64,000 nucleotides of DNA. Source: Actinomycetes bacterium (lineage in GTDB: Bacteria > Actinomycetota > Acidimicrobiia > Acidimicrobiales > JAMCPL01). The stretch covers positions 1 to 64,000 of the forward strand of contig JAKBVZ010000035.1 in the NCBI GenBank assembly GCA_021841005.1, written 5' to 3'. Each line of letters begins with the position of its first letter. The first letter of the stretch is position 1. The position numbers were made by a program. This document shows positions 24,301 through 48,300 of the stretch, one piece after another.

Positions 24301-27300
24301 GGACGTGATGAGATCAGGAAACGTTCCGGGATTGATCTGGAGATAGCCGGGGTGGCGGTGAGAGATACGGCCAAAGAGAGGCCACTATTGCCGGATGCTC
24401 TTTCCAGGGAGCTTTTTACGGATGACCCATTTGCATTGGTGGATGACAGCTCCGTGGATGTCGTTGTCGAACTGATAGGAGGGATCTCTCCTGCCGGGCA
24501 GGTGATCGACAGGGCTATAGCATCTGGGAAATCCGTGGTCAGTGCCAACAAGGAATTACTGGCTACTCGCGGCGCCGACCTTGTGGCTACTGCGGCATCT
24601 GCGGGCGTAGATCTGCTGTACGAGGCTGCTGTAGCAGGTGCAATCCCCATAGTGCGACTCCTCAGTGAGTCTCTTGCCGTGGAACAGGTATACAGGGTGG
24701 CTGGGATCATGAACGGTACCACCAACTACGTGCTTACATCGATGTCGGAAGATGGTATCGGTTACGAGGAGGCGCTTTCAAGGGCGCAGAGCCTGGGCCT
24801 GGCGGAGAGTGATCCGACCGCTGATGTGGATGGCCATGATGCCGCGGCCAAGGTGGCCATCCTCTCCAGTATCGCCTACAGTTGCGATGTCCGCTTGGAC
24901 GATATAGCGAGAGAAGGTATTACCGGTGTACGTGCTGTCGATGTAGAGTATGCCAGGCAATTGGGTTACGTGATCAAGTTGCTTGCCATTGCGGAATCTG
25001 TTGCCGAGCCCGGCGCTGCACCCGGCGCTGCACAACCAGCGAGGTCCGTTGCCGTGCCATCGGTTGCGAATTCCGGTGCGATTGCCGGCGGGAATACCAG
25101 GGACATCACGGTTGCGGGCAATGCAATTATGAGTACCGGTGGGGCAGTGGTGAGTACCGGTGGGGCAGTGGACGGGCAGGTCTCGGGGAATCAATCGGGA
25201 GACCAATTGGGAGACCAACTTGTCAACATGCCGGAGATATCTGTTCGGGTGTATCCTGCGATGGTGCCGGTGTCCCATCCTCTGGCTTCGGTCAGGGGAG
25301 CATACAACGCCGTGTATGTAGAGGGGATGAGTTGCGGTCAGATCATGCTCTATGGCCAGGGTGCCGGTGGTGTGCCTACCGCTTCTGCCGTTCTCGGTGA
25401 TCTAGTGGACGCGGCCACCAGGCGGCTTGCCGGTCACAGGCCTTACGGGTCGTCTATTCCTGTACGCAGAGTTGCTCCTAGAGCACGGATCAGCCCGCCG
25501 GATCGCTTGCGTTGCGCTTGGTACCTGAATATGGACGTAACGGATCGTCCAGGCGTACTGGCTTCGGTTGCGCAGGTATTTGGAGACAACGACATCTCGA
25601 TACGTTCAATGGAGCAGGTCGGCATGGGAGACGAGGCCAGGTTGGTCTTTGTAACCCATGAGGCACTGGAGGGCAATGTTCAAAGGACGCTTACGGAACT
25701 CCGGCAACTCGATGTTGTCGAAGATGTTGGTGGAATCCTCCGCGTCTTCGGCGCGTAACGGTCCGGTGGACTCTTACGCGGAGGAAAGGTAGGCCACGAC
25801 GGCCACATCATCAGCTGATTGGGCACGAGCGTGATACTTCCAGGACAGGGCGGGACAGGCTGGGGCCGGGCAGGACAGTCCAGGACAGGCTAGGCTGTGG
25901 ATGTGGTAGATACCGTGATCGACGTATGTTGAATGGCACCGGGGCTGAAGTGCCCTCAATATCCGAAGCTATCGAGGATGCTACGGGTGTACGCGCTGCT
26001 AATCCCAGATGGCCCGGAGTCATAGAGACCTACCGGTCGTACCTGCCTGTATCGAGCGGAACACCTGTAGTCACCCTTCTGGAAGGTGGCACGCCTCTTC
26101 TCGAGGCCCCACGCCTGTCGAGAATCGTGGGATCCCAGGTATACCTCAAGCTGGAAGGGATGAATCCCACTGGTTCCTTCAAGGACAGGGGGATGACCAT
26201 GGCCATGTCCAAGGCCGTAGAGAGTTCGAGCCAGGCTGTCATATGCGCTTCCACTGGGAATACGTCAGCTTCGGCAGCGGCATATTCCGCCCGTGCAGGG
26301 ATCACCTGTGCTGTTCTCATACCGGAAGGGCATATTGCGTTGGGCAAACTTGCTCAAGCATTGGTGCATGGTGCAAGAGTCCTGCAGGTCAGGGGCAATT
26401 TCGATGAGGCGCTGGACATTGTGCGGGATCTTGGTGAGCACTATCCGATCACCATCGTCAACTCCATAAATCCCTACAGGATAGAGGGACAGAAGACGGC
26501 GGCGTTCGAGATATGTGACGTGCTGGGGCAGGCCCCCGATTACCATCTGTTACCGGTTGGTAACGCCGGCAACATTACCGCTTACTGGAAGGGTTACAAG
26601 GAGTACTGTGAGGCGGGCAAGGTTGCCGGGATACCAGTGATGCTCGGCTTCCAGGCTGAGGGTGCCGCTCCGATCGTGCTGGGGCATCCCGTGGAACGGC
26701 CGGAGACTATTGCAACCGCGATACGGATAGGCAATCCTGCATCGTGGAAAGGGGCATTGCAGGCCGTGGAGGCGTCGCGCGGGAAGATCACGACAGTAAG
26801 CGACGCCGAGATACTGAGCGCATACAGGCTGCTGGCCACGGAGGAATCCGTATTCTGTGAGGCAGCTTCGGCGGCATCTGTTGCCGGCCTTCTTAAGTCT
26901 CAGATACCGGCGGGCTCCCTGGTGGTATGCGTCCTTACCGGCCATGGATTGAAGGATCCTGACTTGGCGATAAGCCAGATAGAGGTACCCAAGCCTGTAG
27001 ATGCAACCAGGGATGCTGTGCTGGAAGCGCTGGATATGTAATATCGGGCAGTGCAGTTTCCTGCCTCAGAACCAGGCACCGGACAACTGCGTACAGCTCA
27101 GAGGGGATGTCGATTAGTCTATCTTCTATGGCAACGATGAGTGGTATTGCGCGCCCTGTTTCGGTGGAGGGCGTACTTGATGTGCTTGATGAGGATCCTG
27201 CAACGCAGGTCTTGGCAGGTGGTACTGATTTTATGGTGGAAGTCAATTACGGCCACAGGAAGCCGCAGTCAATTGTTGCGCTTTCACGCGTGGCCGGAAT

Positions 27301-45300: not shown

Positions 45301-48300
45301 CGCTACGGTCGGCGTCCTCTGGAAGTGATGGAGGAACTGGGTTGGGTAGGCCAGGATGTATGGTTTGCGCATGGTATCCACTTCAACCCTGCAGAGATAC
45401 AACGGCTGGGTACGGCTGGAGTGGGGGTGGCTCACTGCCCGTCATCCAACGGGCGGTTGGCGTCAGGATTCTGTCCTGTGGTGGATCTCAGAAGCGCAGG
45501 CGTACCGGTTGGGCTGGGCGTGGACGGTGCAGCCTCCAACGAGTCAGGTGCGCTGTTCCCCGAGATTCGCCAGGCTGTCTACCTGGCTCGCTTGCGGGAA
45601 GGGAGGCCTGATGCCCTCTCACCTGAAGAGGGCTTGGAGATGGCTACGGTAGGCGGGGCTAAGTGCATCGGCCGCCCGGAACTCGGCACCCTGGAAGTCG
45701 GCTCGCCTGCCGATATTGCCGTCTGGCCGGGAGGTGACCTGGAAGATGTGGAGGATGCTTTGGCTGGCTTGGTACTGGGTCCCGACCGGCGGGTGAGGCA
45801 CCTATTCGTCGGAGGCCGCATGGTGGTGGAGGACGGGATGCCAGTGGGGTTTAACCTCGACGCAAGCCATCGGGAACTGGCTCGCCGCGCCAAACGGCTT
45901 TTCGCTTCTGATTGAGTGGAACCTGCCGGTACCGTAGCCGCTTCGATCCGACCGGCTAAGGGATGACGGTTACAAGGGTGCCGATATGCACCTGGGGATA
46001 CACCTGGGCAGCTACAGATACCGGCAGCTCCACGCAGCCGAGACTCTGGGGGAAGCCGTAGGAGGCCCTGATGAAGCCGTGGACGGCATCGCTGCCATTG
46101 AAGTAGTTGATCCAGTAGACGGGGTCGTGGTAGTAGGTGCCGTTAGGGTTGTAGCCACTCATGTAGTGGAACGGGAAGCGCAGGTATATGGGGTAGGTGC
46201 CTGGCGCTGTGGGGGTCTGGGGAATGCCGGTATTGACCAGATTGGTGAGCACCACCTGGCCATTGCTCCACAGCCAGAGTCTCTCGGGAAGCTGCATGGA
46301 TACCTGTATCCAAGTGTATGGGTGCGGGTCGTGGGCACCGCTGAGCAACGCATGGATCAGGGTCGGCCACAGGAGCGGGTTGGCGCGCCCTACGGTGTTC
46401 AAACCTTCCACCTGCTCGAAGGCCATCACCGCTCCCTTGGTCATCACTGTATATGCTCCTGGCTGCCACAGAGATGTCAGGGCACTGGGAAAATTCCAGC
46501 GCCAGGTAAAGGTGCCTTGCGGCGGAGAAACCATCATGGATGCTTGGGCGCTGATCGTGCCTGCGCTTGTGTTGCCAGTAGCAGTGACAGTTCCCGTGCT
46601 GCCGGTGCTAGGTGCAGAGGGGATCCAGTTGAATGGTAGGTACCCGAGATGTGCAAGGATCTGTTGCAGGCGTAGGGTGGATCCCGGGGCACCTTGCAAC
46701 TCCACGGTGCTCGTGGGATCAGACACCGTGCCCGCGCCGTTCGACAGGCGTACCGCGGCCGGCAGGTGCATATTCACCTGCTCGCCTGGCCAGAACACCG
46801 GACCGTCCGGGGTGAACTTCAGGCTGTAGGCAGTAGGTTCCGACCAGGTTCCCTTGGGAACGATAGCTCCATTGATCACTGGGGTGATCGACGGGGTGCG
46901 CTTTCCGAATACACTAGCCACCGGTTCCGAGAGAGTGATCTTTACGGGAGAGGATGCCGGCAGGGCGCTACCGGCGGTAGATGGAGTGATGATCGCCATA
47001 GGAGTATGTCCGATGGTTCCAAAGTAAGTGAACCGCACTTGCCGAGCGGGTAGCGATTCCCAGAGGTAGGGAGCAGCAGCAACGCTGGCTATGCCTGCCT
47101 GCCCATTTTTCACCTGGTTCACTATTTCAACCCTGCTGGATGGCGTCTTCAGACGCTCGATTGGATCGATGGAGGCAATCGTGACCGACACCTCGCTTAC
47201 CGGTTTGCTGAACCTGGCATACACCGCCTGTCCTGGAGGAACTGTAGTGACCGATGTCAGCAGGCGAGCATAGGGGGTGGTCACCTGCCTGGTGAGCTTA
47301 GCAGTGTGACCGGCCAACCAGCCGATCCAGGAAGGCCTGCGCAACTCTACGGTGACATCGACTCTTGTTGCGGTAGGAACCGGCGACAGGGGCACAAAGC
47401 TCCCGCCATGATCGGCAAGTGTGACCTGATGACCATGGTAGCTTGCAATCGCCGAGACAACGCGGCCACTGGCTCCACTCGACTTCAAGTCGACGAGTCC
47501 TTGCGAGGATGGTTCAAGGTTTGCTCGTGGCCAGGAAAGGTACAGGAAGGTGGCGCCCAACAGTGCCAGCAGTACTACGGCACCGAACCCTACCAGCATG
47601 CCCCAACGATGCTTGCCACGGGCTTTTGACACTTCCTCCGATCGCGGATGGCGCTCAGTTCCCAAGGCGTGGTTGCCGGCTGGATCGTATGACCACGATG
47701 AAGGCAATCCGGCAGGTGAAGCAGGTGGCGTAGCCAGTGACCCGGAAGCAGGAGGCGCTATGGCCGGTATGGTTGGTGCTGTAGCCGGCGACTCAGAGGT
47801 TGGTGCTGTAGCCGGCGATGTAGGTATTGCCGCAAATTCCTGTGTCATGGAGGATGCTTGGGCTGGTACTGATGTAAAGTCTGGAGCCGGAGTCTGCAAG
47901 GATGCCGGCGGCAGGGCCCCGGGATTCCCTGCAGCAGACGGGGTGAAACCTAGCGGCACAGAGGCAATCGGTGCAGACGGCGGCATCGTAACTGTTGGAG
48001 TTGCTTGTGCATCAGCCACCTGAACTTCTGCAGTAGTGGTTCCGTATTGCGGCGCTGTGAAGCCCGGTCCAGTGCCGACATGTTCCGGCTGTCGGGGCGT
48101 AGATGCCTGCTCGGCTGTTCCCTGCTTCCTGAAGTACTTCACGAAGTCATTATATACTCCTGCCCGCCATTTTGCCGTTCAACCCTGCAGTTCCGGGTCC
48201 CTTCTACGGCGTACCCTGTCCAGGGCCAGCGCCTCCAGCGCCACTTGTGCATTGGTTCCCGTAACGGCAGGCAGTCTTTCCCACGAACCGGTTGGCATCA

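Follow-up and report, generated by a model that had tools for sequence, protein, structure and literature searches.

Gene content of the cluster

In the Acidimicrobiales genome G000 (GCA_021841005.1; 93.94% complete, 36 contigs), we investigated a window of 64,000 nucleotides from contig JAKBVZ010000035.1. The reductive urate cluster of the survey's finding is indeed present, all named genes being intact ORFs within 27107-45915. Three forward-strand genes encode a three-subunit xanthine dehydrogenase: a PucC-like FAD subunit (27107..28024; PF00941, PF03450; an alternative start at 27128 is possible), a PucE-like 2x[2Fe-2S] subunit (28021..28770) with a Gly/Gln-rich insertion at 28345-28437, and a PucD-type molybdenum subunit (28774..31170; TIGR03196 score 854, cut 783.65) predicted to convert xanthine to urate. 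On the reverse strand lies a UacY-like D-aminoacylase (31254..32900; PF07969), a predicted ureido hydrolase matching D-aminoacylase structures (E 2e-69; 3GIP/3GIQ, E 1e-62). The forward-strand YgeY M20 hydrolase (32932..34230) is 42% identical to E. coli YgeY and 40% to that of E. faecalis, and passes two models (NF009555, 438 vs 321; TIGR03526, 427 vs 321.5). It is followed on the same strand by P0001 (34352..36970), a fused [2Fe-2S]/Mo hydroxylase lacking a FAD domain and predicted to be a 2,8-dioxopurine dehydrogenase.

Downstream, also on the forward strand, a short SsnA-like amidohydrolase was found (36951..38081), with an uncertain start at GTG 36951 or TTG 36954, the longest ORF beginning at 36855. 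The protein is shorter and scores below the TIGR03314 cut (259 vs 455.5), with metal ligands kept and identities of 35% to E. coli SsnA and about 31-33% to E. faecalis SsnA. The next forward gene encodes an LLM-family Mer-like reductase (38181..39215; PF00296), whose best solved matches are F420-dependent Mer proteins (E 1e-38) and which passed no TIGR F420 model in the profile search; it is a predicted F420H2-dependent substitute for YgfK. On the reverse strand are an NCS1 nucleobase transporter (41351..42880; PF02133) and a YgeX-like diaminopropionate ammonia-lyase (43156..44418). Both YgeY and YgeX had been said to pass their cuts; this is true of YgeY, while YgeX is over the cut of NF006058 (299.4 vs 276) and under those of TIGR03528 and TIGR01747.

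The cluster also holds forward-strand genes beyond those originally listed: an XdhC/CoxI Moco chaperone (39395..40675; PF02625, PF13478), which has no YqeB domain and aligns only to residues 18-253 of E. coli YqeB, a MocA/PucB-like nucleotidyltransferase (40684..41244; PF12804, score below the TIGR03310 cut), and an 8-oxoguanine deaminase (44617..45915; NF006055, 536 vs 532), predicted to be a second urate source. We take the XdhC and MocA-like helpers to correspond to Bacillus PucA and PucB.

As the survey had it, HyuA lies elsewhere: the sole hydantoinase of G000, which passes TIGR02033, is found inside a pyrimidine cluster on contig C28. In G113, G204 and G075, hyuA is in or near the hydroxylase cluster. 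G000 also encodes F420 synthesis (CofGH), F420:NADP reductase, Moco genes and SufS/NifS-like desulfurases; carbamate kinase was not found in this genome. The reported aa3 oxidase corresponds to one heme-copper subunit I with the actinobacterial aa3 model as best match, but the 443 Pfam-matched residues scanned score below the full-length cut, and its presence is no proof that the pathway operates in air. A third Mo-hydroxylase match (contig C31, around 117785) contains a TGA considered as selenocysteine, which is a stop between two subunits. Three RNA-library contig sets, compared with the cluster at a likeness of 80%, yielded short patches that were almost all less than 90% alike and bear on expression neither way; one 2.8-kb contig, from a relative, reaches the hydroxylase and LLM genes.

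The hydroxylase and its orthologs

P0001 passes TIGR03311 (selenium-dependent xanthine dehydrogenase), as claimed, with a margin of just 3 bits (833.8 vs 830.45), while E. faecalis Xdh scores 1630.6. The orthologs of seven genomes without SelD range from 792 to 838, two over the cut and five under it. P0001 and E. faecalis Xdh are 42% identical and fall in one clade with support of 100/100 (IQ-TREE, LG+G4, 22 rows), the P0001 branch being sister to the E. faecalis group. Concerning the published DOPDH signature (bovine XOR numbering), A1078T/S is found as Thr675 in 52/52 orthologs, whereas at F1009V all 52 have Asn609, the Val being present in E. faecalis Xdh and in P0014. Moreover, P0001 has Lys485 where E. 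faecalis Xdh has Pro. Since one of the two signature residues differs, we can only infer urate as the substrate and 2,8-dioxopurine as the product.

The 12 active-site positions are identical across 10 SelD-less and 42 SelD-bearing orthologs. Invariant columns are kept at 96.2-99.7% in SelD-less copies, slightly lower than in SelD-bearing ones (95.7-100%, most over 99%), and the search for a sulfur-specific residue revealed no alignment column that cleanly divides the two groups. On the gene tree (FastTree), the SelD-less label requires 7 changes, at least 5 of them forced. SelD-less copies have intact frames and preserved catalytic residues. The dN/dS of P0001 to the G004 ortholog is 0.14, with argS, lysA, hom and thrC at 0.09-0.18 (the comparison with L031 is saturated), and SelD was found in 0/6 genomes of the family whose hydroxylase gene shows this purifying selection.

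Absence of selenium genes in carriers

The survey had reported G000 to lack SelD and YqeC. This holds, and extends to other genes: genome searches found no SelD over the cut and no SelA, YqeB, YqeC or tRNA-Sec, and tblastn queries with SelD, YqeB and YqeC from both E. faecalis and Acidimicrobiales, plus E. faecalis YedF, gave no match at E 1e-3. The cluster had been described as present in 2 of 201 class genomes, which understates the system. From 220 Acidimicrobiales genomes, each at least 95% complete, 83 contain a TIGR03311-type hydroxylase; it is the YgeY/UacY arrangement that is rare. A SelD-bearing relative with the same gene order was also mentioned; G016 and G054 fit this description, but the genome called G013 in the present set has neither the gene nor SelD.

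SelD is absent from 8 of the 83 carriers, and the addition of G000 and G004 results in 10 genomes from 7 families, including three near-closed ones: G011 (100% complete, 2 contigs), G113 (99%, 1 contig) and G204 (98%, 1 contig). All SelD-less carriers encode a heme-copper oxidase. SelA agrees with SelD in 80/80 genomes tested (both in 70, neither in 10), and the two genes are mostly far apart in carrier genomes. This agreement indicates that the SelD losses are real, largely answering the worry that MAGs merely miss selD, and that selenocysteine use explains why carriers have SelD. A hidden, diverged SelD was sought among the AIRS_C matches of G011, G113, G204, G209 and G236, which, taken as a group, look mostly PurL/PurM-type by frame length and clustering.

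YqeB occurs in 12 of the 80 genomes tested and in 0/10 of the SelD-less ones, and YqeC in 25/83 carriers. We consider YqeC a weaker marker of selenium dependence than yqeB, because C. difficile required SelD and yqeB and not yqeC, according to the accessible passages of PMC11448449. In 5 of 8 mapped yqeB/yqeC regions, the marker adjoins a different Mo hydroxylase, with a large subunit 28-35% identical. On the other hand, the ortholog lies 5 kb from yqeB and 11 kb from yqeC in G222 and G078, and yqeC adjoins hyuA in G027; some members may thus remain tied to selenium. SelD is more frequent in carriers (75/83) than in non-carriers (73/137), a comparison in which kin are not independent.

Spread of the pathway

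Around P0001-type loci, the LLM gene is found nearby in 45/54, ssnA in 36/54 and pucD in 22/54. A YgfK-like gene is near the hydroxylase in 7 loci, and an LLM match is absent in 6 of those. Of 5 SelD-less genomes searched, only 2 yielded YgeX. In G236, with ssnA and the LLM gene absent near the hydroxylase and no CofG found, the locus looks partial. Uricase was found neither in G000 nor in the 5 SelD-less genomes searched, and OHCU decarboxylase, a marker of the oxidative route, occurs in 6/220 genomes of the order and 1/83 carriers.

A probable selenium-independent route

We consider it likely that this cluster degrades purines via urate, along the reductive 2,8-dioxopurine route, with an entry enzyme, P0001, carrying sulfur instead of selenium on molybdenum, since no selenium-activating genes were found in these carriers. 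NCS1 would import purines, and PucCDE and the 8-oxoguanine deaminase would produce urate. P0001 would then take off the C6 oxygen of urate, drawing electrons from a donor of low potential (ferredoxin is a guess), and its sulfur may be inserted by the ordinary XdhC and cysteine desulfurase route. F420H2-dependent ring reduction could fall to the LLM enzyme and opening of the two rings to SsnA and the C28 dihydropyrimidinase, after which UacY and YgeY would remove the ureido groups and YgeX would yield pyruvate and ammonia. Because carbamate kinase was not found, the cell would profit through nitrogen and pyruvate, not through ATP. Within the selenium-independent reading put forward by the survey, the independence of the hydroxylase from SelD is the better supported part: SelD, SelA and YqeB are jointly missing in 10 carriers of 7 families, near-closed genomes included, and the hydroxylase gene shows purifying selection in one family in which no genome has SelD. 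Gene content, missing genes, co-occurrence and sequence conservation are observed; the sulfur ligand, the electron donor and every enzyme activity, substrate and product included, are still putative.

The enzyme could be selenium-free and act on another substrate or with other regiochemistry, in which case the cluster would degrade a related heterocycle; alternatively, urate reduction could be the work of the FAD-bearing PucCDE, as it is of XdhD-YgfM in E. coli. The pocket residues (Asn609 for Val, Lys485 for Pro) and the separate subclade are in line with this, as is the reduction of urate in E. coli by a FAD-coupled, NADH-using enzyme (PMC12507026, section 6); according to a commentary, computation could not have foretold which isomer is formed (PMC12990295). 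We regard it as unlikely, however: P0001 is tied to the LLM gene and ssnA more tightly than pucD is, YgeY, YgeX and UacY share one cluster with two urate-making enzymes, and no oxidative urate route was found. Selenium might instead reach the enzyme without SelD, for example from a NifS/SufS-type lyase through XdhC, or either element might be accepted as the host allows. SufS and NifS-like enzymes exist in G000, SelD is enriched among carriers, copies with and without SelD do not differ in sequence, and Liu et al. could point to no residue of the active site that explains selenium versus sulfur. Still, this seems improbable given the requirement for SelD in C. sporogenes and for SelD and YqeB in C. 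difficile and the lack in G000 of SelD, SelA, YqeB, YqeC, YedF and tRNA-Sec. That SelD was simply lost in assembly, or that the hydroxylase is an idle relic of lost selenium use, would suit a genome 94% complete in 36 contigs and the partial locus of G236. It is very hard to reconcile with the joint absence of two mostly distant genes in 10/10 genomes, three of them near-closed, and with the low dN/dS, intact frames and catalytic residues.

If the sulfur-ligated reading is true, the same scaffold needs selenium in gut anaerobes and works without it here, which would place the choice of element in the maturation genes of the host and not in the active site. We propose this only tentatively, together with the idea that a sulfur-ligated 2,8-dioxopurine dehydrogenase is the main purine-degrading route of Acidimicrobiales (83 genomes vs 6 of 220 with the oxidative marker). 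Liu et al. found no explanatory active-site difference among molybdenum hydroxylases. A natural SelD-free ortholog makes the question testable by swaps of enzyme and maturation genes. The reductive pathway, described as limited to obligate or facultative anaerobes (PMC12990295), would then extend into a large order in which every SelD-less carrier encodes a heme-copper oxidase. Strains engineered to degrade urate would gain a naturally selenium-free first enzyme, and urate-lowering ones could be freed of their selenium need.

Comparison with known systems

With the XdhAC/DOPDH pathway of C. sporogenes, as presented in the passages of 10.1101/2025.04.24.650524, G000 shares a fused Fe-S/Mo hydroxylase that has about 850-870 aa and no FAD domain (compared by published description), SsnA, YgeY, YgeX, a separate XDH feeding urate, and A1078T. 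G000 differs in the absence of SelD, YqeB and YqeC, the replacement of YgfK by LLM and of YgeW/YqeA by UacY, the Asn at 1009 and a host with an aa3-type oxidase. According to the same passages, DOPDH from a C. sporogenes selD mutant is inactive, giving no sign of a sulfur fallback in that organism. The E. faecalis cluster (NZ_CP142821.1) has the order ssnA-ygfK-hydA-dpaL-ygeY-ygeW-arcC-xdh-selD-yqeC-yqeB, with identities to G000 of 42% (Xdh, in the clade of P0001), 40% (YgeY) and 30% (DpaL). It holds sclA, selD, yedF, yqeC and yqeB, whereas none of the last four has a match in G000.

The UacY-type D-aminoacylase is shared with the UacX/UacY variant of C. difficile, and the luciferase-family reductase beside SsnA with the F420 variant predicted for Chloroflexota, both in the accessible part of PMC12507026, where SsnA is also noted in Actinomycetota. 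That part does not address selenium loss, 'selen' appearing once in the main text, in a reference title. The F420 swap was thus predicted before, as the survey acknowledged, and the literature searched contained no such argument for selenium independence. The 27107-31170 genes, passing the PucD model, resemble the Bacillus PucABCDE xanthine dehydrogenase; in Bacillus this enzyme is coupled to uricase, while in G000 it would be coupled to the reductive route. We regard the cluster as a new variant of a known pathway.

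The gene cluster and its predicted route

Between positions 27107 and 45915 of the window, 13 intact genes were found, with the same GC content as their flanks. They include a xanthine dehydrogenase (PucC-PucE-PucD), a UacY-like D-aminoacylase, YgeY, a short SsnA, XdhC, a MocA-like transferase, NCS1, YgeX, an 8-oxoguanine deaminase, a luciferase-like (LLM) reductase nearest to F420-dependent Mer, and P0001, a fused Fe-S/Mo hydroxylase without FAD domain (34352..36970, forward strand). The genome (G000) has 2.45 Mb in 36 contigs and is 93.94% complete. By its relatives the lineage belongs to Acidimicrobiia (Actinomycetota), presumably to the order Acidimicrobiales. 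P0001 passes TIGR03311, as the survey's finding had stated; with a margin of 3 bits, the name of this model cannot count as evidence for selenium.

In PucE the two Fe-S halves are separated by a Gly/Gln-rich insertion, which is encoded by a 6-bp repeat of 15.5 copies (28345-28437). At the ssnA start there is a perfect 15-bp repeat of 3.2 copies (36999-37046), and a nearby ATG overlapping the upstream stop (36970) is in a different frame. The NCS1 gene (41351-42880) is 83% identical to the copy in locus L031, and its dS to the close relative G004 is 0.62, against 0.14-0.25 for its neighbours; it was possibly replaced by recombination.

Purines would be taken up by NCS1 and converted to urate by PucCDE and the 8-oxoguanine deaminase. 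P0001 would then remove the C6 oxygen from urate, a reductive step that we infer to be unavoidable on this route for natural 6-substituted purines. Ring reduction by the LLM enzyme with F420H2 would be followed by opening of both rings by SsnA and a hydantoinase, release of the ureido groups by UacY and YgeY, and formation of pyruvate through YgeX. In ordinary xanthine dehydrogenases, XdhC together with a cysteine desulfurase supplies the Mo sulfur; a sulfur inserted likewise would be the simplest ligand assignment for P0001. A reductive 2,8-dioxopurine route with sulfur-ligated P0001 is the reading we favor, with moderate confidence.

Among support genes, G000 has CofGH, F420:NADP reductase, matches to moaA, moaB, moaC and moaE, SufS and a NifS-like desulfurase; its PorA/PorB-like subunits fall below their cut-offs and no carbamate kinase match was found in it. 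Its hydantoinase lies on another contig (C28), as part of a reductive pyrimidine cluster that has an F420-type LLM of its own, so the role of this hydantoinase in the urate route is presumed. This cluster (L197:5965-12230) contains an aminotransferase, MMSDH, a CN hydrolase, dihydropyrimidinase and a TIGR03842 F420-type LLM, which may replace dihydropyrimidine dehydrogenase. In the carriers G113, G204 and G075, a hydantoinase is in or near the urate cluster. On the same contig as P0001, at about 114.5-123.7 kb (L201:10488-19660), boxB and boxC, both over cut, adjoin a 4-hydroxybenzoyl-CoA reductase-like Mo enzyme below cut, bringing reductive and oxygen-using benzoate genes together.

Absence of selenium genes and retention of the hydroxylase

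No SelD over cut and no YqeC, YqeB, SelA or tRNA-Sec was found in G000, and tblastn queries with E. faecalis YedF, or with SelD, YqeB and YqeC of both E. faecalis and order relatives, returned nothing at E 1e-3. The survey's finding had likewise reported no SelD or YqeC. SelD was found in none of 6 genomes of the family, a tally that includes G047, flagged unpublished, on which no other claim depends.

From 220 genomes of the order, each at least 95% complete, SelD was found in 148 and a P0001 ortholog (63-72% identity) in 83. SelD is present in 75 of these carriers and missing in 8: G011 (100% complete, 2 contigs), G113 and G204 (one contig each), G022, G075, G209, G226 and G236. With G000 and G004, the SelD-less carriers are 10 genomes from 7 families. 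SelA and YqeB were searched in 80 genomes, namely G000, G004 and 78 of the 83 carriers; the five SelD carriers with the highest contamination (G029, G125, G154, G177, G242) were excluded. SelA occurs in 70/70 SelD carriers vs 0/10 SelD-less genomes, thus the selenocysteine trait accounts for SelD in carriers. YqeB was found in 12 of the 80, all of them SelD carriers; 10 of these matches are over cut and 2 lie at contig ends. YqeC was found in 25 of the 83 carriers (4/15, 0/5 and 21/63 in three batches). SelD of the order is likely itself a selenoprotein, since an in-frame TGA is often present.

That MAGs simply miss selD, a doubt raised with the survey's finding, does not agree with the joint absence of SelD and SelA in 10/10 genomes, including those of one or two contigs. 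As selA and selD are mostly far from each other in carrier genomes, chance assembly gaps would not delete both ten times. A FastTree of 74 rows includes 52 orthologs labelled by SelD status, 42 of them SelD-bearing and 10 SelD-less. On it the label SelD-less requires 7 changes, of which strong branches force at least 5, and none of the SelD-less rows has a long-branch flag. Between G000 and G004, P0001 has a dN/dS of 0.14. Values for the 11 other cluster genes that were measured range over 0.07-0.31, those of four housekeeping neighbours over 0.09-0.18, and a methyltransferase has 0.35. At twelve active-site positions, among them the counterparts of Gln767, Glu802, Arg880, Phe914 and Glu1261, all 52 orthologs share the same residue. 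The positions were numbered by alignment to human XOR, presuming a human-to-bovine offset of one residue and the Glu1261 motif. Of 290 columns that do not vary among SelD carriers, the SelD-less copies keep 96.2-99.7%; the carriers' leave-one-out values are slightly higher. An artefactual absence of SelD, or a relic hydroxylase, is very improbable.

It is also unlikely that P0001 takes selenium without SelD. Speaking against selenium independence, SelD is enriched among carriers (75/83 vs 73/137 non-carriers, kin not being independent), the trend that residual selenium dependence would produce; four genomes of the background (G069, G145, G172, G210) are flagged unpublished, and no other claim depends on them. 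The yqeB gene is 5 kb from the P0001 ortholog in G222, yqeC is 11 kb from it in G078 and adjoins hyuA in G027, so some order members may still be selenium-linked. A different Mo hydroxylase adjoining yqeB/yqeC was counted in 5 of 8 mapped regions (G028's yqeB region excluded), clearly in G222, G158, G039 and G043; the fifth, G009, has only an XdhC paralog with amidohydrolase and LLM genes at the marker. This second module (L204:1241-11256 in G222, L190 in G039, L189 in G009) comprises an XdhC paralog, yqeB, often yqeC, LLM, amidohydrolases and a distant Mo hydroxylase, and may hold the order's true selenium-dependent enzyme.

Genomic context and substrate

Context was counted in the 54 titled loci that span 14 kb or more, 26 shorter ones of the 80 being left out. 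Near the hydroxylase, an LLM gene was found in 45, ssnA in 36 and pucD in 22. YgeY and UacY occur in only 2 of the 54 (closest relatives), and also in G016 and G054; in most others their place is taken by a nitrilase-family hydrolase (32 loci) and an M20 carbamoylase (27 loci). This common Acidimicrobiales form, seen at L111:6513-10142 (G011), L113:14785-19036 (G022) and in about half of the long loci, also lacks YgeX and often has a divergent class III aminotransferase. Seven loci have a YgfK-like gene close to the hydroxylase, and in 6 of these there is no LLM match. In locus L071, from a record titled Kiloniellaceae, a 65% identical hydroxylase occurs with ssnA and a YgfK-like gene, by either transfer or mis-binning.

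The oxidative marker OHCU decarboxylase was found in 6/220 order genomes and 1/83 carriers, and uricase in none of 5 SelD-less genomes examined, G000 among them. In SelD-less genomes examined, CofG was found in 4/5, F420:NADP reductase in 5/5 and YgeX in 2/5; G236 looks partial. The 9 other SelD-less carriers all have a hydantoinase and a heme-copper oxidase, whose gene is a capacity for oxygen respiration, not proof that the urate route runs in air.

As reference for 2,8-dioxopurine dehydrogenase (DOPDH) we used the sole Mo hydroxylase annotated in the canonical E. faecalis urate cluster, a stand-in for C. sporogenes XdhAC. P0001 is 42% identical to it and on a sister branch within a shared clade (100/100). 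Both DOPDH signatures given in passages of Liu et al. (10.1101/2025.04.24.650524), A1078T and F1009V, are present in the stand-in. P0001 carries A1078T, but at the F1009V site Asn609 is found in its clade, as is Lys485 at a position occupied by Pro in E. faecalis. Another substrate for P0001 is accordingly conceivable, but we consider it rather doubtful, as the genomic context supports the reductive urate pathway.

Comparison with known systems

In the work of Liu et al., every carrier strain had SelD and YqeBC, DOPDH from a selD mutant was inactive, and the C. sporogenes enzyme was active only anaerobically. Parts of other papers state that C. difficile requires yqeB, yqeC being dispensable (PMC11448449), link the Se-cofactor trait to anaerobes (PMC5029168), describe the pathway as confined to anaerobes, whether obligate or facultative (PMC12990295), and suggest that the nearest kin of selenium-dependent hydroxylases may be selenium-free homologs (PMC2276186). 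In the literature searched, with subscription journals mostly outside its scope, no SelD-free form of the pathway was found. The F420 swap has already been predicted, as the survey's finding had acknowledged: Li et al. (PMC12507026) propose it for Chloroflexota and also report SsnA from Actinomycetota.

By the SelD, YqeB and YqeC searches, G000 does not show the selenium-cofactor trait, and P0001 shares one of two signature residues with DOPDH, while the cluster is predicted from its genes to work like the 2,8-dioxopurine pathway. What is new is the genomic evidence of a DOPDH-type enzyme that was retained although all known selenium-activating genes were repeatedly lost.
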